Positions 1 through 17,195 of a stretch of DNA of 64,000 bases are shown here, in pieces; within the stretch, counting starts at the first letter, position 1, and each line of letters begins with the position of its first letter. The translations under genes were made by a program, and so were the position numbers. The notes under the pieces are model-generated. The model ran no database searches and had not been told where the DNA came from. It saw only the letters and a program-made list of their open reading frames with translations. The stretch comes from Candidatus Saccharimonadota bacterium (GTDB lineage: Bacteria > Patescibacteriota > Saccharimonadia > Saccharimonadales > Saccharimonadaceae): assembly GCA_017512045.1 (NCBI GenBank), contig JAFWHE010000012.1, forward strand, positions 24,935-88,934. The letters run 5' to 3'.

Positions 1-867
1 GTGATTGACGCAGAGGATGCTAATGACGCACTTCGTGCCAACCTTGTGACTTTACACGGGCTATTCCGTCTAATGCTAGGTGGTGCACAACAGGCTTCTG
101 CCGGTGCTCCAGCTGCCCCAGCCCTCACCCCTAATGAAGAAGCCGATCTAGACCAAGCTTTGATAGATACTTATGCTCGTGCTGGTATCACCTCCGATGC
201 CTTAACGCATCAATCCACACCACCGACAATTGCCAATCTTTATGATACCTTACTACACATGGGTGGCACTGGACCAAATCTCGCTCAGCGCTTACGTAAG
301 TACACCACTGGTACTTTTGCCGGTATCTTCTCACAACAGTCTAACATTGATATTAATAACCAGATGGTCGTATTCAATATTCGCGACCTAGAAGATGAGC
401 TTCGTCCAGTAGCGATGTACATCGTGCTTTCTCATATCTGGAATGTGGTACGCGCACAACAAAAGCGCCGCTTGCTGATCGTAGATGAGGCTTGGCAGCT
501 CATGAAATACGATGATTCCGCTAATTTCTTATTCTCTCTAGCGAAGCGTGCTCGTAAGTACTATCTAGGTCTGACCACTATTACGCAGGACGTGGAAGAC
601 TTTATGTCATCCAAGATGGGCCGTGCAATTGTAGCAAACTCATCCATGCAAATTTTACTAAAGCAATCTAGCTCCGCTGTGGATGTATTGTCAGATGTGT
701 TTAAGCTAACAAGCGAGGAAAAGAAGCGTTTATCCAACTTCCCAGTGGGACAAGGTCTCTTCTTCGCTGGACAAAATCACGTCCACATTCAAGTGATTGC
801 CTCAGAGACAGAGGAAAGTCTGATTACGACCAATCCAGTACAGCAACAAGACCAACAAGGCCAATAG
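1..867 (+). CDS. virB4: VirB4/TraC-like type IV secretion ATPase, C-terminal part (runs in from the window edge)
   Basis: Walker B-like LLIVDEAW, then ARKYYLGLTTITQDVEDF and ANSSMQILLKQ, typical of the VirB4/TraC C-terminus. The N-terminus lies outside the window. Confidence 0.85.
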   Translation: MIDAEDANDALRANLVTLHGLFRLMLGGAQQASAGAPAAPALTPNEEADLDQALIDTYARAGITSDALTHQSTPPTIANLYDTLLHMGGTGPNLAQRLRKYTTGTFAGIFSQQSNIDINNQMVVFNIRDLEDELRPVAMYIVLSHIWNVVRAQQKRRLLIVDEAWQLMKYDDSANFLFSLAKRARKYYLGLTTITQDVEDFMSSKMGRAIVANSSMQILLKQSSSAVDVLSDVFKLTSEEKKRLSNFPVGQGLFFAGQNHVHIQVIASETEESLITTNPVQQQDQQGQ

Positions 868-913: not shown

Positions 914-3610
914 ATGGCTGGTCAGAAGAGCTACTTTGGAAAGGGTGATATTCGCCCAAATCTTCCAGGGGTCAAACAACCAGACAATCCTGCAGACCCA
1001 AATGTTTCTGCTAGGAATTCTTTGCGCTCGCTAGAAAATGCTGCCAATCGGAAAAATGCCTTAGGAAATACCGCCTCCCTCCTAGAAAACCAGCCCCCAT
1101 CTCACTCTCTTTATACTGGCAAAGGTAGATCCAATCGGGGGGAAATCAGCAAAAGCAACAGACTCGGTAAGGGTGGCTTGGGCAAAAAATTACTTCGTGC
1201 TGGATTGTTGAAAGCTACACCACTCCTAGTCATTGTCTTAATTTTGGCAGGTGGGATGTTCTTGATTTTTGGCTCATCATCATTTCTCGGCGCACATTTG
1301 GAAGCATTATTTACGGAGGCCACTAGCACAGATTACACTGCCTATACTATGCGTAGTAACGAAATCTTTAAAGAAATCTTGGCCGGTCAAATCCCAATGA
1401 ATGATTACCTGCGCGAGCGCCTAGAGAATGAGGATATAGAAGTTCATGGCAATACGCTAGTATATGATGGTATCACTATTAATGCTGGAAATTTTGACAC
1501 CGTCTATAACGGCAATGTTCACTTCCGCGAAGCGCTGACCTATGCACGCAGGGGTCGCATCGCCATGTTCTTTGATGACGTAGCCGATAGTTTTTACACC
1601 AAACTCGGTATGTCTAGAGATGTTTTCCATAATTACTCTGTTACTGGCAACCAAGAAGCTGATGATAGTAGTTATGATGGCCTGATGACTGGCTATTTTG
1701 GTGGCGGTTCTAGTATGGCCGTTAATACTGCTGAGGAGGTAGAAAAAGAGGATGACAAGGGAAATAAATACATAGATTATGAAGCCACTGGTGAAGACGT
1801 CTCTTCTGCTGGTGGCGGCGATGCGGAATCAGAGGCTAGGGCAAAAGCCTACATGGATGCCATCGGAGACAAAGTTGCTGCCAGGACACCAGGTTGTGCC
1901 GCTCTAGAAATTGGCAACATGGTTGCAACTGCAGTTGCATCTAATGAGCGCTATACCTCTGCGCATGACTATATGACAAAAATGGAAAGCCTGAGCAAAT
2001 CTAGGCAGGGCGAAGGAGATAATTCTGCAGTGCATTCTGTCCTAAATTGGTTCACCAAGTCTGAACCGTCCACCGTCTATGATGCCACAACCGGAGAAAA
2101 AACCACTGTCGTCGGTTCTCCTCTAGAAGCAGAGGGTATGCGTGTCATCCTGGGTGGTTTAACTGCAAACCGTAGCAATGCGAAAAAATTCTCCTTGGAA
2201 CGTTCCTACGAATCCACCAATATTAGCGTAGCTAATTCTGGGCTTTCCACGGCACTTTGTAATGTAGAACGCGCCACTCATACCCTAATTAGCCTTTCTG
2301 CGCTCGCCGTAGCAGGCGGGCCGTTGGTAAAAGCTACCATTGGTATCTTGCTAGATGTTCCTCTGGAGCTAGGCGTAAAAGTAGTCGCCAGTACTGTATT
2401 GTCACTCCTAATCCCGACTGTAGCACAAGTTATATTCCGCAATCCGTTCCCAGAGGCAGTCGGTATCGCTGGCGGAGAGTACTTTACGGAAGGGGCATCC
2501 AATATTAATATGCTTTCCGCGCAGCAAAACTCTGGCGCTACTGGGGCAAGGAAAGATCAAGTGTTGGCTTACAACCATGCTACCAATATCATCTTGGCAC
2601 AAGAGGCAGAAATTGATCGCGCCACTCATAGCCCATTTGATGCGAACAACCGTAATACTTTCCTTGGTAGCATTGTCAGTTCTATTTTACCGCTAGCTAC
2701 TTCGTCCAGTAGTTTAATCTCATCTGCAGGGACACTGGCCTCTATCACTAACAACTCTATTGCCATGCTACACCCAACTTATGCCGATGGAGAAAATACT
2801 TCTCTGATGACCAACTTCGGGCATTACTGTGATAAAGTCTCAGAAGTTGGCGCAACTGGCAATATTTATTGCACGATGATTACTACGCATGACCTATCCG
2901 TAATTAATACGCCAGAGGATAATGAAGAATATCGTAGCGTGATAGAGCTAAGCGTAGAAAAAGATGGCGACAAAGAGATAATTAAAGATGGTTCTCCATT
3001 AGCACATTTCATTGCTTATTGGATGAAACGATATTCCATGCCTGGTATTTACGATGCCAATATCGCCAATGCCTGCAAGAATGACAGTCGTCACATACCA
3101 ATTCTTTCCAACATTGTAGATATGGTTAAATCCTTGATGGGGGATGACTATTGTAAGTCGGTCGCCGATGGTTCGCGGTTTATAAACAGCCCAGACAATC
3201 CAGCCTGGGAAGAAATGGAAAAATGGCATCAGCTCTACGTAATTTCTGCCCGCGTAAAAAATAATCTAGGCGTTTATGGCGATGAAGATGACCCAGTCAC
3301 TACTTTTGCCAAGAAATATGATGAGGAACATCCATTAGATAACTCCCGCTCTGGCTACCTTGCCCGTATTTCTGGCATGACAAAGAATGAGGCAGAGGAT
3401 GTGATTGCTGCCGTGGATTATCTCCAAAAAATCGCGAATTACAATCCATCCGCACGATATAGCTTCTTGGACGACAACCCATCCAACCAATTTACAATTT
3501 TAGCAAGCAAGCTAAGTGACAACATAAATAGCTCTGCTAAGGCTGAAGCCATTGCGATTTTACCGAGAGAGATTCAGTACGCATATCAAGCTCAAGGAGT
3601 AACCGCATGA
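914..3610 (+). CDS. 898-aa membrane protein of unknown function downstream of VirB4
   Basis: Long ORF with a basic low-complexity N-terminus, a TM helix (LLVIVLILAGGMFLIFG), a central ~50-aa hydrophobic stretch and several Cys pairs. TGtTATAAT at 896-904. Confidence 0.85.
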   Translation: MAGQKSYFGKGDIRPNLPGVKQPDNPADPNVSARNSLRSLENAANRKNALGNTASLLENQPPSHSLYTGKGRSNRGEISKSNRLGKGGLGKKLLRAGLLKATPLLVIVLILAGGMFLIFGSSSFLGAHLEALFTEATSTDYTAYTMRSNEIFKEILAGQIPMNDYLRERLENEDIEVHGNTLVYDGITINAGNFDTVYNGNVHFREALTYARRGRIAMFFDDVADSFYTKLGMSRDVFHNYSVTGNQEADDSSYDGLMTGYFGGGSSMAVNTAEEVEKEDDKGNKYIDYEATGEDVSSAGGGDAESEARAKAYMDAIGDKVAARTPGCAALEIGNMVATAVASNERYTSAHDYMTKMESLSKSRQGEGDNSAVHSVLNWFTKSEPSTVYDATTGEKTTVVGSPLEAEGMRVILGGLTANRSNAKKFSLERSYESTNISVANSGLSTALCNVERATHTLISLSALAVAGGPLVKATIGILLDVPLELGVKVVASTVLSLLIPTVAQVIFRNPFPEAVGIAGGEYFTEGASNINMLSAQQNSGATGARKDQVLAYNHATNIILAQEAEIDRATHSPFDANNRNTFLGSIVSSILPLATSSSSLISSAGTLASITNNSIAMLHPTYADGENTSLMTNFGHYCDKVSEVGATGNIYCTMITTHDLSVINTPEDNEEYRSVIELSVEKDGDKEIIKDGSPLAHFIAYWMKRYSMPGIYDANIANACKNDSRHIPILSNIVDMVKSLMGDDYCKSVADGSRFINSPDNPAWEEMEKWHQLYVISARVKNNLGVYGDEDDPVTTFAKKYDEEHPLDNSRSGYLARISGMTKNEAEDVIAAVDYLQKIANYNPSARYSFLDDNPSNQFTILASKLSDNINSSAKAEAIAILPREIQYAYQAQGVTA

Positions 3611-4788
3611 AGCACCAACGCATAATTAGCTTGCTGATAGCTGGTGCTATTGCAGCCTCCGGCTTCAGCGGTGTGGTTTTTTCTACCAATACTTTCGCCA
3701 AGCCGCGTAGCACCCTAAAAGAGAAGTTACTAGATTTTTTAGATAAAAACGGAATCTACTATTATAATGCTGCTAGCAGTTACGCCGACAATTGTTATGA
3801 AGGCGTCGGCAGTTATGATGGTGTGGCAACGGCAGGGTTATCTGGTTTGCAATCAGCATTCGTAGACCAATATCATGATATCGCCGCCCAACTTGGTGCA
3901 CAATATGGCATCCCATGGGAAGCAGTTGTCGCACAGGGCATCCTAGAGTCGGCCTCTGGCACTAGCAATTTTGCCAGAAATCGCAATAATTTCTTTGGTA
4001 TTGGCGCAGTAGATAGTAACCCAGGTGCTGCCAAATCTTACGGCTCTGCCGCAGAAGGGTGGCGTGGATATTACGAATTTATCAATAATAATCCTCGCTA
4101 TCGCAACCACGGAGCATTTAATTACGCTGGAGACCCATATGGTTATATTCAAGCCGTCAAAGCTGCTGGCTATGCCACAGACCCGAATTACGTATCAAAG
4201 GTAAGCAGCATTATCAAAGCAATTCAAAACCGCTCCACAGAAAAAGGCTGGGAGGCATCTTCCGCCGTAGCCAGCTCCAGCACTAGTTATGCTGGAGTAG
4301 CTAATATTTGCGACAATGGCACGGCAGGGAATGGCGATGTCAATTCTATGGCCCTGGCACTATCATGGGCTGACCGCTCTCATTCACTCAATGACCCAAA
4401 CAGCGCCTATCGCCAAGCTCTCGCCGCAACCGGCTTGAGTAATTATGGGGAAAAATATGTCCAGATGGGCGCCAGCTGTGATGCTTTCGTGGCTGCAGTA
4501 TTGCGCTATTCCGGCGCCGATCCAAATGTACCTTGTTGCGGTACTGGAACTATGCTAAATTATTTTGCTTCTCATCCAGAGAAATACGTAGAAGTACCAA
4601 ATATCGGCAATCAATCCAACTTGCAAGGTGGCGACATCAGAATTAAGGTCGGCCACGTAGAAATCTATACCGTAGACCAAAGTGGCGCTGGCAGAATAGC
4701 TTCCGCCTCTCACGGAGACCGCACTGCCGACCACGCCAGAGGATATTATAATGATTCGGGATACAGAATCTTTAGGTTAAGGCAATAA
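3607..4788 (+). CDS. Secreted peptidoglycan hydrolase A: GH73 glucosaminidase + C-terminal Cys/His papain-like (NlpC/P60/CHAP-like) amidase
   Basis: Signal peptide; AQGILESASG...NNFFGI...GYATDPNY (GH73 motifs); GASCDAFV...GHVEIY dyad. ATGA overlap with the upstream gene. Confidence 0.8.
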   Translation: MKHQRIISLLIAGAIAASGFSGVVFSTNTFAKPRSTLKEKLLDFLDKNGIYYYNAASSYADNCYEGVGSYDGVATAGLSGLQSAFVDQYHDIAAQLGAQYGIPWEAVVAQGILESASGTSNFARNRNNFFGIGAVDSNPGAAKSYGSAAEGWRGYYEFINNNPRYRNHGAFNYAGDPYGYIQAVKAAGYATDPNYVSKVSSIIKAIQNRSTEKGWEASSAVASSSTSYAGVANICDNGTAGNGDVNSMALALSWADRSHSLNDPNSAYRQALAATGLSNYGEKYVQMGASCDAFVAAVLRYSGADPNVPCCGTGTMLNYFASHPEKYVEVPNIGNQSNLQGGDIRIKVGHVEIYTVDQSGAGRIASASHGDRTADHARGYYNDSGYRIFRLRQ

Positions 4789-4801
4789 GAGGAGTGAGGA
4801 A

Positions 4802-5452
4802 ATGATAAAGAGTTACATTAAATCACATCCAATCACATTTACCATCCTAAGCCTCCTGGTCTTTGCGACCATTATTCTAGTTATCACCGCACTGAATATG
4901 AAGTCTACTGGTGAAGTAGAAATATGCGTAGCGCCAGAATCTGCAACTGTCACTATTGACGGCAAAAAGTATCAGAACGGTACATATCGCTTACCAACTG
5001 GTGAATTGAAAGTTCATATAGAAAAAGACGGCTTCACTTCGCAAGATTTATCTATCAATAATAGTGGCGCTAATGTCACGAAGATTTATGCTTATTTAGT
5101 TCAATCTGATGGTAGTATGTCCTGGTATAATACGCACGAAAGTGATGCACTATTACTAAATACGATTGGGGATTACCTAGCAGAGAAAAAAGCTGATGAG
5201 TATACCGAGAAACATCCTATTATTTCTAGCTTGCCGATTATCTATGCTAACTATGATGAGAATTATAATTACACTGAATACCGTATAGATGGCGGTAGTT
5301 TCCCTGAATGCGATCAAGATTTCTGCCTGAAGATTACCGATACTACCGGTGATAATCTGGAAAACGCCAAAAGTAAAATCCGCGAAGCTGGGTTTAATCC
5401 GGACGAATATGAAATCCTGTACGAATATTTGCCGATTATACCGCTGGAATAA
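4802..5452 (+). CDS. Membrane-anchored PEGA-like domain protein (partner A)
   Basis: N-terminal TM helix; PESATVTIDGKKYQNGTYRLPTGELKVHIEKDGF matches the PEGA pattern; SD-like AGGAG/GAGG upstream. Confidence 0.7.
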   Translation: MIKSYIKSHPITFTILSLLVFATIILVITALNMKSTGEVEICVAPESATVTIDGKKYQNGTYRLPTGELKVHIEKDGFTSQDLSINNSGANVTKIYAYLVQSDGSMSWYNTHESDALLLNTIGDYLAEKKADEYTEKHPIISSLPIIYANYDENYNYTEYRIDGGSFPECDQDFCLKITDTTGDNLENAKSKIREAGFNPDEYEILYEYLPIIPLE

Positions 5453-5475
5453 TTTTTCTGGTATAATATAACCAT

Positions 5476-6897
5476 ATGGGTTATAGAAAGACATCTGTCC
5501 TGAAGATTGCTGGTCTTTTTCTAGTGGCTTTTTTGATGATTTTTAGTAATAGTCAGAGAGTTTCTGCATATAACCTAGGGAATAAGTGGGAAACAATTTT
5601 CAAGAATAATCGATTTTTATTTTGGAATCCGTATGAGAAAGTGAGAAGAGGCGACCAGTGCGAAGACTTTGGCGAAGATGACCCATATGACCCAGCAGAA
5701 GATCAGGAGCCAGACCAGCCGGATCCAGAACCAGGCGACGATGTCTGGGATGGTCATTGTAGCGGCGTAGGTTCCTATGCTGGTAGTAATGGAGCTCTTG
5801 AAAGATTCTTTTCAGCAGTATACGACGTCGCGAAAAGCAATGGCCTCCCTTGGGAAGCATTACTAGCTCAAATCATCCAAGAATCAAGCGGTGGCAGACA
5901 CGAAGCTTGTCCATTTAATCCTCTTGGATTAAAAAGCTTTAAATCATATCCGCCAGCTTGCGATTCTCGTAACCATGCCACATTTAAGAGCTACCAAGAG
6001 GCATTCCAATATTATGTCGATCATATTATTAGAGTGCGTGAAGCAAAAGGTAAATATCCAAACAATCCATATGCCTATATAGCTTTTTTGCAGACTGAAC
6101 CAAACAAATATGCTCAATCGCCTACATATGTAAATAATGTTTCAGGTTTGATCTGCGGAATCCAAAAGTGGGCTCAGTCGACCAATAAACCAACCTCTTC
6201 CGTCACATATGATAGATATGCTGGCGGGAACGGTGAGCCTATCGGTGGAAATCCTGCCGATGAAGAGGGAACTGATCCAAATCCACCAGTGCAGAGACGA
6301 AAAACTGCAGAATGCCCAGAAGAGGAAGAAGTCCCAGATCCTGAGATAGACCCTACTGAGCCAGAGCCAGAACCAGAGCCAGAATCTCCTTGTGAAGGTG
6401 AAGAATGTGAAAAAGGCTGCCTTACTTATAGTCAAGGACAAGCACTCATGAGCAAATACCGTAGCTTCTCCCCGCGATGGGTCAACCAGAATCCTATGCT
6501 AAAGAATACATATGGCATTAGTGCCACACAGAGTTGTACAAGTGATTTGGAAAACTGTTCTGCCTTTGTGAAATTCTACATCAAAGAGAAAACTGGCGTT
6601 ACAATGGCATCAATTGGTAATGGTAGCCAGGTAGTTGGTAATCTCATTTCTCGTGGATGGCAGAATGGTGGACACACCCCGAAACCTGGAGCTGTATTCA
6701 GCACCCATTCTGGATCCACCATGTGTGGCACTGTTAAATGTGGACATACCGGGGTGGTAGTTGCAATATCTGGAAATACTATCTATATCGCAGAGGCTGG
6801 TTGTTCGAAGCCATTTTCTTGGACCGGTATTCACGCAAAATCATTATCGCAATATAAATCAAGTAGTTATACCTACGCTTACCCACCAGGATGTTAA
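5476..6897 (+). CDS. Secreted peptidoglycan hydrolase B: GH73/lysozyme-like domain + CHAP domain, with acidic Pro/Glu/Asp linkers
   Basis: Signal peptide; LPWEALLAQIIQESSGG...NPLGLK...YAQSPTY; LENCSAFV...GHTGVVVAI...IAEA (CHAP Cys/His/Glu). Confidence 0.78.
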   Translation: MGYRKTSVLKIAGLFLVAFLMIFSNSQRVSAYNLGNKWETIFKNNRFLFWNPYEKVRRGDQCEDFGEDDPYDPAEDQEPDQPDPEPGDDVWDGHCSGVGSYAGSNGALERFFSAVYDVAKSNGLPWEALLAQIIQESSGGRHEACPFNPLGLKSFKSYPPACDSRNHATFKSYQEAFQYYVDHIIRVREAKGKYPNNPYAYIAFLQTEPNKYAQSPTYVNNVSGLICGIQKWAQSTNKPTSSVTYDRYAGGNGEPIGGNPADEEGTDPNPPVQRRKTAECPEEEEVPDPEIDPTEPEPEPEPESPCEGEECEKGCLTYSQGQALMSKYRSFSPRWVNQNPMLKNTYGISATQSCTSDLENCSAFVKFYIKEKTGVTMASIGNGSQVVGNLISRGWQNGGHTPKPGAVFSTHSGSTMCGTVKCGHTGVVVAISGNTIYIAEAGCSKPFSWTGIHAKSLSQYKSSSYTYAYPPGC

Positions 6898-6899
6898 TT

Positions 6900-7628
6900 A
6901 TGAAAGAGAAAATTCAATCATTACTAAAATCAAAAGTTACTATACCTGCTATATTATTAGCTGTTACATTATGTATAGTCGTAGTCATATTTATTTTTAT
7001 AATTAATAAAACTCCATCTACACAAATTAATAATTTGTCATCTTTTGATAAAAGCATCCCATCAGATATCAAAGAAAATATTTATACATCGCTTTATAAT
7101 TTAATTAAAACTAACAATATTGATAATCCTCCATCTGATGGCGCTATGGTTAGAGGAAACACATTTGCAACTACGGAAGATGAGGAGGGAACTACTTACA
7201 CATCTTTTATAGTTGACTTGGAAAAATTACAGCAATCTTACTTTGTCCAATATGAATATAATAAAAATAAAAACTTTTTCAGCACTAGTAACCCCGTAGT
7301 AGTCTCCTGTATTTATGATGAGTCACAAATTATATATAAAGATTTCCATTGCAAAGACGAATTTACTTATAATCCAGAAAATGATGATGTATATTGGTAT
7401 ATTGCAACCCAAATACCATACTCATTACAGCTAGATCCAGAAAACTACATTACTATAACTAGTGGTAATTCCGAATCGGAGCTAAACTTACGCATTGATA
7501 AATGCGATCCAGCTGGTACATATCAATCAATTGAAAAAGTTAAATCATGGATTAATTTACTTGGAGTTGATCCAGAATTATTTACTTTCAATACTTATTG
7601 TAATCCAGACAAGGTTACAGATAATTAG
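6900..7628 (+). CDS. Membrane-anchored hypothetical protein (partner B)
   Basis: N-terminal TM helix; C-terminus resembles partner A. Start placed at ATG 6900, just after the hydrolase B stop. Confidence 0.7.
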   Translation: MKEKIQSLLKSKVTIPAILLAVTLCIVVVIFIFIINKTPSTQINNLSSFDKSIPSDIKENIYTSLYNLIKTNNIDNPPSDGAMVRGNTFATTEDEEGTTYTSFIVDLEKLQQSYFVQYEYNKNKNFFSTSNPVVVSCIYDESQIIYKDFHCKDEFTYNPENDDVYWYIATQIPYSLQLDPENYITITSGNSESELNLRIDKCDPAGTYQSIEKVKSWINLLGVDPELFTFNTYCNPDKVTDN

Positions 7629-8641
7629 TCCACCCCTTCCACACTAGTCAAAATCACTTGGTGGTCTTTGAAATTATCTACCAAACTCTTCTGCCTAGTC
7701 TTATCTAGCTCGGAAAATACATCATCTAGCAACACCACTGGCTTTTTTCCAAGTACCTGATAAATATTCCTCGCCTCTATAAATTTCAGTGCTAAGATAA
7801 TACTTCTCACCTCCCCACGTGAAGCGCTACCATTTGCACTATTCCCATTAAAAATAAACTCATAATCATCCTTATGTATACCAAAATTAGTATGTCCAGT
7901 ATAAATATCCCTATCCGCATCCATCGCCAGAAGTCGTAGATATTCACTTTCTTCTACACTACCAGTATTGCTCTGGTATTTCAAATTTATCTTATCATTA
8001 TTCTTTGCTATAGAATGATATGTCTTTGTGATTTCTTGATTAATGTTATCCACCAGATCCGCCCTACATTTCCTAATTTCCACACCATACTTCGCCAACA
8101 TTATATCCCAAGAAAACAACATATCTTGAGTAATATTTTCCTGCTTTAATAGTTCATTACGCTGCTTCAGAGCTTTATTATATCGAGAAAGAGCATTACT
8201 ATATTTTTCATTTAATTGACTAATCACTCGATCACAATAATCACGCCTTTTAGTAGGAGAAGTAGCAATTAAATGTAAATCTTCTGGTAGAAATAATATC
8301 ACGGGATAGCGATGCTTCTTTGGTAATCTAGCAGATTTTTTATCTTGGATGAGAAACATCTTTTTTCCGCTATCACCATCATAAGTTACCACTGTTTTTC
8401 CGCCATTTATATAATCCAACTCTATACGGTAAAAATCCATCTCTCGCTTAAGAATATCCCTGTCGGTTGCCCGAAAACTTTTCCCATATAATGCAATATA
8501 GATTGCCTCTAATACTGAGGTTTTTCCACAACCATTTTCGCCCAATATTAGTGTGGTCTCTTTATTACAATCTAACTGATAACTCTCGTGACTACGGAAG
8601 TTTCTTAAACTTACTTTCTTTATAATTACATTATTATTCAT
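7625..8641 (-). CDS. recF: DNA replication/repair protein RecF
   Basis: FRSH, GENGCGKTS Walker A, ASRGE signature, VLLDDVFSELD; directly downstream of dnaN. Confidence 0.95.
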   Translation of the reverse strand: MNNNVIIKKVSLRNFRSHESYQLDCNKETTLILGENGCGKTSVLEAIYIALYGKSFRATDRDILKREMDFYRIELDYINGGKTVVTYDGDSGKKMFLIQDKKSARLPKKHRYPVILFLPEDLHLIATSPTKRRDYCDRVISQLNEKYSNALSRYNKALKQRNELLKQENITQDMLFSWDIMLAKYGVEIRKCRADLVDNINQEITKTYHSIAKNNDKINLKYQSNTGSVEESEYLRLLAMDADRDIYTGHTNFGIHKDDYEFIFNGNSANGSASRGEVRSIILALKFIEARNIYQVLGKKPVVLLDDVFSELDKTRQKSLVDNFKDHQVILTSVEGVD

Positions 8642-11885: not shown

Positions 11886-13619
11886 ATGTTTAAAGAGCAG
11901 CATCACTTTATCCGCGAATACTTTGCGATTGCGGAGCTTAATCCGTTGCTTTTTGCTTTTAATCTGATTACGGCATTTCTTTATAAAGCGGCAGATATTT
12001 TTATGCCTTTTGTTGCGGCGCTCATCATTAAGGCATTGACGGAACAGAATGTGGATGAGGCGTATCTTTATATTGGGATTTTTGCTGCAACATACTTAAC
12101 GTATCGGCTTAGTCTTTATATTAACTTCCGAGCATATAGCCGTAATGTTAGTTATAGTTACTGTGCGATGCAGACAAAAGTATTTAATAAGCTACTCCTC
12201 GTAGATAGTGACTTTACGCGCAAGATTAGCAAGGGACAGCTAATGAACACAATTAATACAGATCTCATCGCCATTGGCGAGCTGAATGATGAAATTTCTG
12301 AATATATTGCGACGTTTTTCCAGATTGCGGCTATTGTAACGATTTCTGCGATTTATTGCTGGCCTGTGACGATATTAATGTGTATTTCTGTAATTTGGTT
12401 TGTGAGGATTAGGGAGAAAAACGACCGAAGATTTAATCATTATTGGTGGAAGACTCAGACTGAAAACGATAAATACAGTAATTTTCTCGGTCAAGTAATG
12501 ACGGGATTACAAGAAGTAAAGACATTTAATATGCTGCCAAAATTGCATGGTCATCTAGATAGAATCCAGAATCGATATGACAAATCATATATGATTCAGC
12601 GAAAATATGTTTCCAAAAGAGATAATGATGTTAAGTATGAATTTTATACATTTCGGGTAATCATTACGATATTAATGATTATTTTAATGATGAATGGACT
12701 TTTGACGATTGATATTTTCGTTCTGATGATTTCTTATCATAGCACCTTAAGGGATACGGCAAAGGATTTGACAGATGCTACAGTAGATATTAGGTTAGCC
12801 AATGCCTCAGTGAGGCGTGTTGCAGGTATTCTGAATTATCGTACAGGAAAGCCGATAGAGTTTGGTGATGTAAATATTGATAAGCTAAAAGGCTCTTTGC
12901 AATTTAAGAATGTCTCCCTCTCGCTTAATCATCATCAGATTTTGAGAGATCTTAATTTTAAGATAAAACCACATGAATTTGTTGCGATTGTAGGGTATCC
13001 AGGGTCTGGAAAAACTAAATTATTTGATTTAATCTTACGCATTAATAAGCCGACTAAGGGCAAAATCTTGCTAGATGGAATAAATGTAAATGAGTTTTCT
13101 AAAGATATTTACACTTCCAATGTGGCAGTAGCGAATCAAGTGCCGTTCATATTTAATATGAGTATCCGGAAAAATTTGAACTTTGTAGATGACGATATTA
13201 AACATCAAATCAAAGCTTGCAAAATAACAGGCATCCATGATTTTATAGAGACTTTGCCGATGGGGTATAATACGATTTTGCGTGAGAATGCGACTAATAT
13301 CTCTGGTGGGCAAAGACAGATGATTTCTATTGCACGCACGTTGCTAACAAATTCAGAAGTATTATTACTAGACGATGTGACGACCTCACTAGATCCAGAC
13401 ACGGCAGAACTTGTGCCAAGATTAATTAAAAATATTCGTGATACACATACAGTGATCATGATTACGAAGAAGCCAGATTTAATGAAATTAGCCGATAAAA
13501 TTATCGTGTTAGATCATGGCAAGATTTCTGATATGGGCACGCACGAGAAACTGCTAGAGAGAAGTAAGTTATATCGTTCGCTCCAGGCCATCAAATCCAA
13601 TATGGGAGGAGCGGCATGA
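11886..13619 (+). CDS. ABC exporter subunit (TMD+NBD) with degenerate Walker B and switch
   Basis: TMD plus GYPGSGKT, ISGGQ, LLLDD (E to D), ITKK (H to K). Start moved to ATG 11886, 7 nt after TGtTATAAT. Confidence 0.88.
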   Translation: MFKEQHHFIREYFAIAELNPLLFAFNLITAFLYKAADIFMPFVAALIIKALTEQNVDEAYLYIGIFAATYLTYRLSLYINFRAYSRNVSYSYCAMQTKVFNKLLLVDSDFTRKISKGQLMNTINTDLIAIGELNDEISEYIATFFQIAAIVTISAIYCWPVTILMCISVIWFVRIREKNDRRFNHYWWKTQTENDKYSNFLGQVMTGLQEVKTFNMLPKLHGHLDRIQNRYDKSYMIQRKYVSKRDNDVKYEFYTFRVIITILMIILMMNGLLTIDIFVLMISYHSTLRDTAKDLTDATVDIRLANASVRRVAGILNYRTGKPIEFGDVNIDKLKGSLQFKNVSLSLNHHQILRDLNFKIKPHEFVAIVGYPGSGKTKLFDLILRINKPTKGKILLDGINVNEFSKDIYTSNVAVANQVPFIFNMSIRKNLNFVDDDIKHQIKACKITGIHDFIETLPMGYNTILRENATNISGGQRQMISIARTLLTNSEVLLLDDVTTSLDPDTAELVPRLIKNIRDTHTVIMITKKPDLMKLADKIIVLDHGKISDMGTHEKLLERSKLYRSLQAIKSNMGGAA

Positions 13620-15316
13620 GATATTACTATAAATTACTAAAAAAGTTCTTCTCTTTGGGAGCGACAGATAAACATCTAATGCGTAATCTATTTATTACAG
13701 CAGGATTGCGGACGGGTGCATATTTGCTAGTGCCATGTGCGGCAGCAATGATTGTAGACTCTGCGACGGATGGAGATTATACAATGGCTCTAGTAAATAC
13801 GGGTTTCTTCGCGGTTAGCGCCTTTCTGTATACATTATTTCATCATATGAACTATAAATCTTATGCTGACAATGCGATGTATATTCATGATGAGCTACAG
13901 CGTAAAATCTTAGATAAGGTAGTGACATTCAACCAGGATTTCACGAAGAATATTTCTCAGGCGGAGATAATTAATACTGCGTTTGAGGATGTAACAATGA
14001 ACCAACGTATACCAGACTATTTCTTTGATTTGATCACTAATTTTATCAGTATTGTTGCCGATGTAATAATTATGATATTTGTGGATCCGCTAATTGGTGG
14101 AATTACTTTTGGACTAACGATGTGTGCTATGGCGGTATTTATCTATCATATGAAACGACGCGATCATTATACTGCGCTACATAGAGAAGACCAGGATGAT
14201 ATTGCTGGATTGTATAGCCAAATGATAGATGGGCATAAAGAAGTTCATACTTTCAATATGGAAGAAAACTTAAAAGATATTTTGGAAGATAATAAAAAAG
14301 ATTGGAAAAGAAACTTCTTCCGCAAGAGATTGCATAGCGACCTAGGTGAATCATTAACGCCATTTCTGCTGGGTTCAGCAAGGGTGATTAGCTATTTTAT
14401 AGCAGCTGGTCTGATATTGAAAGGCGAATATAATATCGCGACACTAGTCTTGATTATTGGATATTTTGATAATATGCAGCAAAGTTATGACGGTGTAACG
14501 GATATCATTCTCAATATTACAAAGAGCTCTGTAGCAATTGAGCGTGTGTATAAGTTACTAAACTACAAATCTCCGCGGAAACAGAAATTCGGCACTAACG
14601 ATACGGATGATATTGCCGGAAAGGTGCAGTTTAGCAATGTATCATTCACCTATGGACGCAAACCACAAATGAGAAAAGTGAGTTTTGTTCTGTATCCAGG
14701 CTCGCTTACAGGCATCGTTGGTAAGTCTGGTTCTGGCAAATCTACGATTTTTCGGCTACTACTACGTTTATATAAGCCAACACGTGGTAAGATTCTAATC
14801 GATGGCAAAAATATTCGTGATTATACTAAGGAAGTGTATGCTTCCAACGTGAGTATTGTAACACAGAAGCCTTTCGTTTTTGATATGTCTATCCGTGAAA
14901 ATCTTAATATGGTGGATAGTAACCATGAGCACCAAATAGAGGCGTGTAAAATGGTTGGCATACACGATGTAATTATGAAACTCAGCAAAGGATACGATAC
15001 GATTCTAGTATCAGATGCAACGAACCTCTCTGCTGGGCAAAAGCAATTGTTAGCTTTAGCTCGCACATTATTATCAAAAGCAGAAATATTATTATTTGAC
15101 GAGGTAACTTCAACTTTGGATGCGAGCACCACTAAACAAGTGATAGGAATATTAAAAAAGCTAAAAAAAGACCATACTGTCTTAGTCATCACGCACAAAC
15201 CAGAAGTAATGCGCCAAATGGATGAACTGTTAGTGATAGATAATGGCCATCTGGTCGGGCGTGGAACTCATAAGAACCTGTTGAACAATAAATATTACAA
15301 ATTATTACAAAAATAA
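13616..15316 (+). CDS. ABC exporter subunit (TMD+NBD), heterodimer partner
   Basis: GKSGSGKS, signature LSAGQ, LLFDE, ITHK; ATGA overlap with its partner. Confidence 0.88.
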   Translation: MRYYYKLLKKFFSLGATDKHLMRNLFITAGLRTGAYLLVPCAAAMIVDSATDGDYTMALVNTGFFAVSAFLYTLFHHMNYKSYADNAMYIHDELQRKILDKVVTFNQDFTKNISQAEIINTAFEDVTMNQRIPDYFFDLITNFISIVADVIIMIFVDPLIGGITFGLTMCAMAVFIYHMKRRDHYTALHREDQDDIAGLYSQMIDGHKEVHTFNMEENLKDILEDNKKDWKRNFFRKRLHSDLGESLTPFLLGSARVISYFIAAGLILKGEYNIATLVLIIGYFDNMQQSYDGVTDIILNITKSSVAIERVYKLLNYKSPRKQKFGTNDTDDIAGKVQFSNVSFTYGRKPQMRKVSFVLYPGSLTGIVGKSGSGKSTIFRLLLRLYKPTRGKILIDGKNIRDYTKEVYASNVSIVTQKPFVFDMSIRENLNMVDSNHEHQIEACKMVGIHDVIMKLSKGYDTILVSDATNLSAGQKQLLALARTLLSKAEILLFDEVTSTLDASTTKQVIGILKKLKKDHTVLVITHKPEVMRQMDELLVIDNGHLVGRGTHKNLLNNKYYKLLQK

Positions 15317-15347
15317 AAATAGGTGAGATGGTATAATAAAGTATAAT

Positions 15348-15686
15348 ATGCTATCAAAGAAATATCGGTTTCATTCACGTGGTGGAGTAAGATATACGTA
15401 TTCCCATGGCAAGACGATTCGCTCGCCAAAATTGTCGCTGGTTTTTAATGCTAATTCGCGCGGCTTTACGCGTTTCGCGGTGGTGGTATCAAAGAAAGTA
15501 GAGAAGAGTGCCGTCGGTAGGAACCACATCCGTAGAAGAGTATATGAAGCTATCCGCTATGAGATGAATGATAAATATAAAAAACGTGACTATATCTTTG
15601 TCGTATATAATAGAGATTTGATAAGGATGGATTTTACTGAGCTAAGAGGTGCAATTCATTCACTTTTAGAACAGAGTATGATATAA
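15348..15686 (+). CDS. rnpA: Ribonuclease P protein component
   Basis: RFAVVVSKKVEKSAVGRNHIRRRVYE (RNR motif); upstream of yidC. Confidence 0.93.
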   Translation: MLSKKYRFHSRGGVRYTYSHGKTIRSPKLSLVFNANSRGFTRFAVVVSKKVEKSAVGRNHIRRRVYEAIRYEMNDKYKKRDYIFVVYNRDLIRMDFTELRGAIHSLLEQSMI

Positions 15687-15696
15687 TCAAGATATC

Positions 15697-16731
15697 ATGT
15701 TTTGGCTGATTGATGTTATTATTGTTCGTCCGATTATAAATTTGCTTTTTGTGATTTATAATCTAGTTGGCGATTTTGGTCTCACTATTATTGTATTTAC
15801 TGTTATCGTGAAGCTGGCGATGTGGCCATTAGTGAAGCGCCAGTTACAACAGACCAAACTGATGCGCAAGATTCAGCCAGAACTAACTCAGATTAAGAAG
15901 AATTGTAAGGGCAACCGTCAGATGGAATCACTCCAGATGATGGATTTGTACAAGAGGAATAATATCAAGCCATTCCGTACTTTGCTCACTACTATGATAC
16001 AGCTACCGATTTTCCTAGCACTTTTTATGGCGATTTCCGTAATGGTAAATCCGCGTCCGTCAGCTGACACTTGTGGCTATACCAATGTTTCTAACTGTGT
16101 CTATGAACCACTTAAATCAAAGGGTAGAGTGCAGGATATTATTAATATGCAAGATGAGTATTTTGCGGAAAAAGATGCTGGGGAAGAAGCTACTTATGAT
16201 TTCCAGCCAAAACTATTCGGCGTAGTTGATTTATCTGTCAGTCCATCTAATTTGCTGAGTGGGAATGTGACAGTAAGTACAATTATTATCTTTGTCTTCG
16301 CGCTAGGCGCGGCAGCTTTGCAGTATGTCGCCACCAGGCAACAATCTCCATCTGGTAAGAGCAAGAAATCCAAATCTTTCCGTCAGCTAATGAAAGAAGC
16401 AGCTGCTGGGGACGGTAACCAACCTGACCAGTCTGAGATTAATGAGCTAGCCTCCAGACAGATGTCGTTCATGATGCCAGTGATGATGTTTTTCATCATG
16501 TTCTATCTGCCAGGTGCACTTGTATTCTATTATGTATTATCTAGTGGTGTGATGGTATTACAGCAACGCCATGCGCTCAAGCAAACTGAGGATGAAATGG
16601 AGCAGTCCGCAGATAAGGCAGTCCTAAAGGAGCTCCGCAAGATTGAAGAAGCTAAAGTGGTGGAAAACAAAAAAACTGGCACAAAAATCACACGTATCTC
16701 CGCAAAAGATAGTAAAAAGAAAAGGAGATAA
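15697..16731 (+). CDS. yidC: Membrane protein insertase YidC/Oxa1
   Basis: DFGLTIIVFTVIVK...MRKIQPEL, IQLPIFLALF, LPGALVFYY. Confidence 0.93.
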   Translation: MFWLIDVIIVRPIINLLFVIYNLVGDFGLTIIVFTVIVKLAMWPLVKRQLQQTKLMRKIQPELTQIKKNCKGNRQMESLQMMDLYKRNNIKPFRTLLTTMIQLPIFLALFMAISVMVNPRPSADTCGYTNVSNCVYEPLKSKGRVQDIINMQDEYFAEKDAGEEATYDFQPKLFGVVDLSVSPSNLLSGNVTVSTIIIFVFALGAAALQYVATRQQSPSGKSKKSKSFRQLMKEAAAGDGNQPDQSEINELASRQMSFMMPVMMFFIMFYLPGALVFYYVLSSGVMVLQQRHALKQTEDEMEQSADKAVLKELRKIEEAKVVENKKTGTKITRISAKDSKKKRR

Positions 16732-16736
16732 CAATA

Positions 16737-17195
16737 ATGGATAAAGATGAATCGGTGCGCTTTGCAACCAAGTATTTGGAAGATTTGCTAAGCTTCTTCG
16801 GCATTAATGTGGCGGTAGACTCTACGATGGACGATGAGGTAATTCAACTCTCCGTGCCATCCACTTCACTGAATTCGCTGTTGATTGGGCGTAATGCGGA
16901 TAATTTACGCGCTTTGCAATATATTGTATCGCAAGCACTAGCGGCAAAAAATGCAGAAATTACCCGTGTTAATGTGGATGTAGCAGATTACAAGAGGCAG
17001 AGAGCAGACCGCATCGCAGAAAAGGCCGAAGGCTGGATTAGGAAGGTGCGTGAGACTGGCGAATCAATGCGTCTGGATTTGTCGCCAGCAGATAGACGCG
17101 TGGTACATAAACTAGCAGAAGATTATTCTGATATCTCCACCCACTCCGAAGGAGAGGGCAGGGAAAGACAGCTAGTCATCGAGAAATCTGAATAG
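16737..17195 (+). CDS. jag: Jag/EloR-like RNA-binding protein (KH + R3H, no Jag_N domain)
   Basis: LLIGRNADNLRALQ (KH), VDVADYK, RRVVH (R3H), SEGEGRER; follows yidC. Confidence 0.85.
   Translation: MDKDESVRFATKYLEDLLSFFGINVAVDSTMDDEVIQLSVPSTSLNSLLIGRNADNLRALQYIVSQALAAKNAEITRVNVDVADYKRQRADRIAEKAEGWIRKVRETGESMRLDLSPADRRVVHKLAEDYSDISTHSEGEGRERQLVIEKSE

Follow-up and report, generated by a model that had tools for sequence, protein, structure and literature searches.

Two cell wall hydrolases, each followed directly by the gene for a small single-pass membrane protein, close a type IV secretion system (T4SS) operon near the start of the window analysed here, a stretch of 64,000 nucleotides from a Candidatus Saccharimonadota bacterium (assembly GCA_017512045.1, contig JAFWHE010000012.1, positions 24935-88934). 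The hydrolases are referred to as Hyd1 and Hyd2 and the membrane proteins as partner 1 and partner 2. Across genomes of the class, members of this partner family nearly always followed wall hydrolases, the type of partner matched the type of peptidase in the enzyme, and the partners shared a C-terminal module of about 75 residues. Tentatively, we regard the partner as a docking or control subunit that is anchored in the membrane and serves a hydrolase exported by the Sec route. The locus, its adjacency to dnaA and the position of hydrolases after virB4 are already published; no discussion of the partner family, the shared module, the type-matched pairing or the enzyme leader described below was found in the literature searched.

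The partners and their common C-terminal module

Both partners were predicted from their sequences and structural models to be N-in/C-out single-pass (bitopic) membrane proteins. Each has one N-terminal transmembrane (TM) helix after a lysine-rich N-terminus, and for this reason the bulk of the protein was predicted to lie outside the cell. The AlphaFold2 model of partner 1 (predicted local distance difference test score, pLDDT, 95.4) matched only transthyretin-like and PEGA-like domains in Foldseek. The match of its sequence to the PEGA family PF08308 fell below the cutoff (15.9 bits, cutoff 20.8; E 0.012), and the same family was precomputed in four of its homologues. There were 105 homologues in total, and the few with a source name belonged to Candidatus Saccharibacteria. 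A ribosome binding site (GAGGAG) is located upstream of partner 1. For partner 2 (pLDDT 92.5) there were 702 representative homologues at E<=1e-3. Its Foldseek matches in the PDB were weak, non-significant hits to NTF2-like folds (E 0.2-0.3), including TraM of pIP501 (4ec6; E 0.3, probability 0.25, TM-score 0.19/0.33). The start of partner 2 overlaps the stop of Hyd2 by 7 nt. Searches of Pfam, NCBIfam and PDB sequences revealed no enzymatic or known binding motif in the partners.

The first-pass annotation of this DNA had noticed a motif common to the C-termini of the two partners. In a pairwise comparison the motif was not significant (BLASTP E 5.8), but it was recovered at the level of profiles: hhalign of the two partner families gave 39% with 3 sequences and 89% (E 2.4e-6) with 53 sequences, and the alignment of the 53-sequence profile spanned exactly the 25 residues first noticed. 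The hidden Markov model (HMM) of the partner 2 family also matched partner-1-family proteins at 4.5e-8 and 8e-7, and a protein from locus L014 matched both families. In partner 1 the module has the pattern LP...RIDGG...C...FCLKITD...A..I...GFNPDEYEI, and in the AlphaFold2 models the C-terminal domains of the two partners have the same order of secondary structure elements. A profile of the module (A4, an alignment of 36 sequences and ~75 residues) identified it in 59 of the 151 genomes of the class, nearly always as one copy and in open reading frames (ORFs) of ~200-275 aa. The module was also present in 13 genomes of other Patescibacteria classes, for which 301 phylum-level genomes were sampled, and had no relative among PDB sequences.

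Pairing of partner type with hydrolase type

In the first 20 genomes the abutting same-strand gene upstream of the partner ended in a CHAP or NlpC/P60-type domain without exception (20/20). The usual context in 40 further neighbourhoods was VirB4 ... hydrolase - partner / recF-dnaN, with a recognisable hydrolase upstream in most, and within the Nanosyncoccus clade an NlpC/P60 hydrolase preceded the partner 1 gene in 31/31. Nearly every gene immediately upstream of the module encoded a peptidoglycan hydrolase of several domains. The same layout of hydrolase and partner was found in other classes of Patescibacteria.

The domains identified when 38 upstream proteins were scanned included Phage_lysozyme2 (19), GDSL (11), M23 (8) and CHAP (5), together with SLT, GH73, Amidase_2/3, beta-lactamase-like and GH3 domains. 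In four of 20 individually scanned upstream proteins Pfam gave no significant domain, and three of the four were bitopic, so that two small membrane proteins follow the enzyme, as in Southlakia epibionticum. A partner tied to CHAP alone, as the first 20 genomes had suggested, was rejected when M23, Amidase_2 and lysozyme-only enzymes were later found upstream.

The type of the partner followed the type of the peptidase. A PEGA-type partner accompanied NlpC/P60 in all 54 classifiable cases, and a partner-2-type (A3-type, alpha+beta) partner accompanied CHAP in 17/17 (14 identified by phmmer, 3 by Pfam). Swaps were not observed, even where one genome carried both cassettes, whichever of them came first. 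M23 or Amidase_2 enzymes are followed by long partners of 457-516 aa, which have weak beta-propeller-like matches and carry the same C-terminal module. At the N-terminus of the hydrolases the catalytic domain was shuffled among GH73, Phage_lysozyme2, GDSL and Exo_endo_phos, and the junction between peptidase and partner was constant. The N-domain of the partner was the fastest-evolving part, with a mean distance of 0.53 as against 0.32-0.37.

The pair also remained together when displaced. In the congener G143 a GH73 hydrolase and its partner are encoded among housekeeping genes on a contig (contig 9) other than that of VirB4, and at locus L006 a GDSL-motif/NlpC enzyme and partner occur in a genome with no VirB4 match. 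The view of the two units as paralogous cassettes, each of a hydrolase and its cognate partner and linked to the neighbouring T4SS, was supported. Tandem cassettes were common in the Nanosyncoccus clade and rare in the class overall; the second cassette of that clade was of the CHAP and partner-2 type in about nine loci and of the NlpC and PEGA type in six. Overlaps of the hydrolase and partner genes were found in relatives as well.

Several loci had unusual arrangements of these genes. In the congener G119 (L064) the Hyd2-type enzyme appears to be split into a 209-aa GH73 ORF (5412-6038) and a 486-aa CHAP ORF (3958-5415). The hydrolase slot upstream of a partner-2-type gene at L019 (G110:C2) is occupied by an ORF (2-1489) with Exo_endo_phos and CHAP domains, the former not a wall domain, and the slot at L047 (G006:C1) by an ORF (12185-14251) with Beta-lactamase2 and Phage_lysozyme2 domains. 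At L111 (G358:C7), from another class of Patescibacteria, three small NlpC/P60 proteins alternate with module-bearing partners between VirB4 and recF. An apparent fusion of lysozyme, CHAP and partner in a 721-aa ORF (G134, L010), which would have been Rosetta-stone evidence for the pair, was rejected because it depends on 1 nt by which G134 and G137 (L011) differ in a C-run near the 3' end of the hydrolase gene, probably an assembly error or a frameshift mutation, and because the partner would also end on the wrong side of the membrane.

The hydrolases and their shared leader

Hyd1 and Hyd2 had been described as two secreted proteins of one architecture that are highly diverged, each followed at once by a single-TM protein, and both parts of this description were accurate, the ORFs being exactly as stated. 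Each enzyme joins a GH73 domain to a Cys/His peptidase domain; the GH73 domains are 31% identical (E 4e-12), and the remaining parts do not align. They are the only GH73 proteins of the genome. The GH73 family has its catalytic Glu in a '..ES..G' motif and carries a YATD/Y-type motif, and inspection located the corresponding segments in Hyd1 (AQGILESASG, GYATDPNY) and Hyd2 (AQIIQESSGG, KYAQSPTY). The C-terminal domain of Hyd1 gave no Pfam match as a single sequence. The profile of its family (A7, 16 sequences) has an invariant Cys (C291), Gly-Asp and His (H350) and matched the NlpC/P60 structures MepS/Spr (1e-5), 7cfl (1e-3) and CwlO (0.12). Both hydrolases begin with what by inspection is an apparent cleavable Sec signal peptide. 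Sec is the apparent export route of both, and neither is anchored in the membrane by itself.

Enzymes that combine a glycosidase with a Cys-peptidase and are encoded after VirB4 are the standard machine-associated hydrolases of monoderm T4SSs. With this domain combination in a VirB4-containing, MPF_FATA-like operon, Hyd1 and Hyd2 are read as machine-associated T4SS wall hydrolases of the class of CwlT, PrgK and pIP501 TraG. The earlier label of 'effector' was not supported, in view of this standard type, the apparent cleavable Sec signals, and a locus in which neither coupling protein nor relaxase was seen.

Directly behind the signal peptide, hydrolases of all domain types show the pattern hydrophobic-x-x-N-N-I-x-F-Y-(N/D)-P, then a Cys. 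A leader HMM built from the first 95 residues of NlpC-type enzymes, with the window sequences excluded, matched only Hyd1 (5e-32) and Hyd2 (1e-5) among the 4716 ORFs of the genome, and also matched 13 CHAP-type N-termini.

Proposed role of the partners

The reading that we prefer, and hold tentatively, is that the partner docks or controls its Sec-exported hydrolase at the membrane. Each hydrolase would be translated together with a dedicated bitopic partner, which would bind the enzyme and tether or restrain it. The fast-evolving, membrane-proximal domain of the partner would provide the binding surface that recognises the cognate peptidase, the PEGA-like sandwich for NlpC/P60 and the alpha+beta domain for CHAP. 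The conserved module would serve a function common to all pairs: it could attach the partner to the T4SS or to the wall, or bind the hydrolase leader (F..NNI.FYNP...C). The outcome would be a diffusible lytic enzyme held at, and limited to, the secretion site, where epibiont and host are in contact.

This docking reading is supported by the adjacency of the genes, with the module present nearly always once in 59 of the 151 genomes and the order VirB4 ... hydrolase - partner / recF; by the type matching, the stable peptidase-partner unit and its persistence away from the T4SS; and by translational coupling through the overlap of Hyd2 with partner 2 and the overlaps in relatives. It is consistent with the compartment, both hydrolase and partner being predicted to be extracytoplasmic, and the leader common to both hydrolase types is suggestive of the same. 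Further support comes from S. epibionticum, in which the hydrolase SEML1_0006 and the positional counterparts of the partners, SEML1_0005 (PEGA, 211 aa) and SEML1_0004 (249 aa), were essential in transposon sequencing (Tn-seq; PMC10633639, Tables S1/S2). The T4SS cluster was set at SEML1_0006-0019 in that study, and SEML1_0004 and SEML1_0005 therefore fall outside it and were not discussed (PMC10633639).

Other observations weigh against docking. The partner-1-type gene of G119 comes directly after VirB4 with no NlpC/P60 hydrolase, and some partners follow hydrolases that have no peptidase (GDSL and lysozyme only). A mirror-tree analysis of 20 loci gave a partial correlation between partner N-domain and NlpC of 0.22 (p 0.064), and the others were lower. 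The type matching could merely reflect adjacent genes inherited as a unit. The shared leader is suggestive only, because the leader HMM takes in the signal peptide, and Hyd1 and Hyd2 were both missed by a generic HMM of the motif, built from 20 diverse segments. The homology of SEML1_0004 and SEML1_0005 to the partners is inferred from position, size and annotation. Their essentiality may be polar and fits immunity equally well; with SEML1_0004, SEML1_0005 and SEML1_0006 all essential, the S. epibionticum data cannot separate docking, immunity and scaffold.

Were the hydrolases to attack the host wall, the partner could be a cognate, membrane-anchored inhibitor that protects the peptidoglycan of the producer, a reading put forward in the first-pass annotation. 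Cognate immunity proteins beside papain-like amidase effectors are well established (Tae/Tai of the type VI secretion system, T6SS; X-Tfe/X-Tfi of Xanthomonas), and membrane-anchored extracytoplasmic immunity exists in monoderms (TipC). Strict adjacency and a variable partner domain that matches the peptidase family fit such an arrangement, as do a partner ectodomain predicted to face the producer's wall, the rapid evolution of the N-domain and the multiplication of cassettes in some genomes; the essentiality of the positional counterparts in S. epibionticum would be expected if their loss caused self-lysis. The variable domain could act as an active-site-specific inhibitor. The conserved module is not of that kind, because it is present with CHAP, NlpC/P60, M23, Amidase_2 or lysozyme-only enzymes. 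This range weighs against immunity, which is judged unlikely, as do the two or three different catalytic domains that each hydrolase sets against one small partner. Neither a coupling protein nor a T4SS secretion signal goes with the enzymes, which have apparent Sec signals instead (PMC12102498). No orphan immunity arrays were seen, most genomes having one copy, and similar hydrolases of monoderm T4SSs are components of the machine and not effectors.

The partners might alternatively be structural T4SS subunits that follow the hydrolase by operon convention, with no specific contact between the two. PrgL follows prgK, TraH follows traG and Orf13 of Tn916 follows orf14, and the partners have both the operon position and the bitopic N-in topology of these VirB8-like proteins. 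Across the phylum the module keeps its place at the end of the operon, and VirB8 homologues were reported as not found in Saccharimonadia (PMC12102498). The NTF2-like matches of the first domain of partner 2, TraM among them, were non-significant with TM-scores <=0.33; partner 1 has a PEGA/transthyretin-like sandwich and not NTF2, and no profile match to the VirB8/TcpC/PrgL families was obtained in Pfam or NCBIfam (E<=0.1) or in the PDB. A VirB8-like fold was not supported, and a scaffold role was kept as a minor and improbable alternative. Pairs are also encoded outside the T4SS, one of them in a genome without any VirB4 match, some genomes have two to three copies per operon, and the partner type tracks the hydrolase type, which a generic scaffold would not need to do. 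The partners could also be proteins that bind the wall or the host surface, or maturation factors, linked to the hydrolases by operon co-expression alone. Surface and adhesion proteins often contain PEGA-like, Ig-like and beta-propeller-like domains, and no enzymatic or known binding motifs were found in the partners. The two-gene unit is, however, strictly kept on relocation, its partner and peptidase types match and its genes overlap, and such a role is judged very improbable.

The docking reading could be extended to a phylum-wide modular family of hydrolase-handling subunits, in our estimate a doubtful generalisation at present. The constant module would plug into the machine or bind the leader, and an exchangeable domain (PEGA-like, alpha+beta or beta-propeller-like) would read the peptidase (NlpC/P60, CHAP, M23 or amidase), so that one protein would serve as docking device and safety catch. 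Were this so, an epibiont could direct interchangeable lytic 'heads' against the host wall without self-lysis, and the family might functionally replace the VirB8 scaffold not found in the lineage. Few systems have been shown to be essential for Saccharibacteria to live as epibionts, and the T4SS is one of them. Of its parts the wall hydrolases vary most; the partners are conserved, unannotated and, in S. epibionticum, apparently essential. Whether a partner docks, restrains or neutralises its enzyme would help to decide between remodelling of the cell's own wall for the machine and attack on the wall of the host.

Genomic setting of the cassettes

The cassettes belong to a gut Candidatus Nanosyncoccus-like Saccharibacterium. 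Its genome comprises 733 kb in 30 contigs, and its close relatives are gut metagenome-assembled genomes labelled Candidatus Nanosyncoccus sp. or Candidatus Saccharibacteria. The cassettes are the distal end of a chromosomal, origin-proximal, MPF_FATA-like T4SS operon (Table 1). On the plus strand the end of VirB4 is followed by an 898-aa ORF, Hyd1, partner 1, Hyd2 and partner 2; recF, then dnaN and dnaA, lie on the opposite strand and converge on the end of the operon, a boundary repeated in most related loci. The first-pass annotation had placed the cassettes behind VirB4, and they do belong to the same operon, but the 898-aa ORF separates VirB4 from Hyd1.

Table 1. Features of the T4SS operon end in the window. 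Coordinates are window positions; topology and domain limits are predictions.
Feature	Position (strand)	Extent	Description
VirB4-like ATPase, C-terminal part	1..867 (+)	288 aa	Full gene 616 aa, starts upstream of the window
Protein with no known family	914..3610 (+)	898 aa	Between VirB4 and Hyd1
Hyd1	3607..4788 (+)	393 aa	Signal peptide aa 1-31, leader LLDFLDKNGIYYYN...C, GH73, NlpC/P60
Hyd1 GH73 glucosaminidase domain	3877..4227 (+)	aa 91-207	PF01832, E 1e-27, 97.6 bits (cutoff 30.2)
Hyd1 NlpC/P60-type Cys/His peptidase domain	4327..4782 (+)	aa 241-392	C291, H350
Partner 1	4802..5452 (+)	216 aa	TM aa 10-32, PEGA/transthyretin-like beta-sandwich 36-98, helical hairpin 108-143, C-terminal module
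Partner 1 C-terminal module	5225..5449 (+)	aa 142-216	Strand-strand-strand-helix-strand; A4 profile 5.8e-19; hhalign
TATAAT	5462..5467 (+)		8 nt upstream of Hyd2 ATG (5476); no Shine-Dalgarno sequence
Hyd2	5476..6897 (+)	473 aa	Signal peptide aa 1-31, leader WETIFKNNRFLFWNP...C, acidic Pro-rich linkers, GH73, CHAP
Hyd2 GH73 domain	5818..6153 (+)	aa 115-226	PF01832, E 2.9e-8, 34.8 bits (cutoff 30.2)
Hyd2 CHAP domain	6550..6798 (+)	aa 359-441	PF05257, E 5.8e-10, 40 bits (cutoff 26)
Partner 2	6891..7628 (+)	245 aa	TM aa 17-38, alpha+beta domain 49-139, C-terminal module
Partner 2 C-terminal module	7404..7625 (+)	aa 172-245	IPYS...LNLRIDKC...IEKVKSWINLLGVDPELFTF; A4 profile 2.2e-14; hhalign
recF	7625..8641 (-)		4-nt overlap with partner 2 stop; then dnaN, dnaA

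The VirB4 part within the window matched P-loop_TraG (PF19044, 2e-18) and the CD1110-family VirB4 of NCBIfam (1e-46), and the full-length gene was read in locus L001. Upstream of the window are a 1161-aa protein, a PrgI-like gene, a 311-aa protein and the 616-aa VirB4, with six T4SS_pilin genes further upstream on the opposite strand. The ORF of 311 aa (L001 14024-14959) has a weak TraC_F_IV match (E 0.017) and overlaps the start of the VirB4 gene (14952-16802). VirB4 may be split into two ORFs, because counterparts of the 311-aa ORF in relatives carry the TraC-like family PF26593. Neither a relaxase nor a VirD4-like coupling protein was seen in the T4SS locus. That this system lacks a coupling protein has been published (PMC12102498), and an origin-proximal, relaxase-less T4SS was already described for Patescibacteria (Quinonero-Coronel et al. 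2025, PMC12102498). The T4SS was essential for epibiotic growth of S. epibionticum (Wang et al. 2023, PMC10633639).

The 898-aa protein had no match in Pfam or NCBIfam. Its homologues precede Hyd1 in 22 of 31 loci of the Nanosyncoccus clade. It is absent from the congeners G013 (L067) and G119 (L064) and from L004, where hydrolase or partner comes straight after VirB4; this absence marks it as a dispensable or exchangeable block. In two genomes of the same genus, at L071 (G143:C8) and L072 (G065:C3), recF does not mark the end of the T4SS operon. The genes there are, in order, VirB4, a Phage_lysozyme2 hydrolase (in G143 also with a VanY domain), a PEGA-type membrane protein of 308-317 aa without the C-terminal module, DnaJ and RNase Y, and from this different operon end the locus has been relocated within the genus. 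The G+C content of the partner genes (0.30-0.38; positions 4801-5600 and 6801-7600) is much lower than that of the hydrolase genes (0.44-0.49), the remainder of the T4SS block being at about 0.45.

Cassette 2 had been credited with a -10 element of its own 6 nt before the ATG. A TATAAT is indeed present, but at a distance of 8 nt; it has no -35 and a promoter consensus scan made no call. It was found again in one relative (L002), and an internal promoter for cassette 2 was rejected on these grounds. From the sequence, a leaderless start of Hyd2 is possible. Two exact 151-nt contigs (6667-6962) from one gut metatranscriptome run span the junction of Hyd2 and partner 2, a faint sign of expression and co-transcription that is too little to define transcripts.

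Comparison with known systems

The two enzymes resemble CwlT (ICEBs1), PrgK (pCF10), TraG (pIP501) and Orf14 (Tn916), in which a glycosidase and an NlpC/P60 or CHAP domain are likewise encoded after VirB4 in an MPF_FATA-type operon, and relatives use the CwlT-type Phage_lysozyme2 domain. As with PrgL, TraH and Orf13, the product of the gene that follows is bitopic and N-in, with a length of about 200-300 aa. In contrast to these monoderm conjugative systems, the present locus has no relaxase or coupling protein, and its hydrolases carry apparent cleavable signal peptides (by inspection) where most of those of the monoderm T4SSs have their own TM or lipid anchor. The partners differ from PrgL, TraH and Orf13 in having no significant similarity to VirB8 or NTF2 and in carrying a module not found in PDB sequences.

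With the Tae-Tai and X-Tfe/X-Tfi pairs the cassettes have in common a wall enzyme beside a cognate small protein in the wall compartment of the producer, and pairing specific to enzyme family. Those effectors are recognised by the machine (XVIPCD/VirD4, VgrG/Hcp), whereas the enzymes here are exported by Sec with no coupling protein, and one partner serves a multi-domain enzyme. The likeness to FtsEX-PcsB/CwlO/RipC and to IseA is purely conceptual, these being systems in which a separate extracytoplasmic protein or membrane-protein domain sets the place and activity of a CHAP or NlpC/P60 enzyme; no similarity of sequence or fold was detected, no ABC-type ATPase is involved, and the setting is secretion and not division.

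A close parallel in layout is the T4SS of S. epibionticum ML1, which is also origin-proximal and relaxase-less, with a pilin array, PrgI, a split VirB4 and a large unknown protein. There, too, a multidomain lysozyme/Cys-peptidase hydrolase is followed by small exported or bitopic proteins and the operon converges on recF, the small proteins SEML1_0004 and SEML1_0005 being compared with the partners by position, size and annotation only. Tn-seq scored this whole set of genes in S. epibionticum as essential. The two loci differ in the arrangement of the set: one three-domain enzyme with two small proteins in S. epibionticum, and two alternating enzyme-partner cassettes in the genome studied here.

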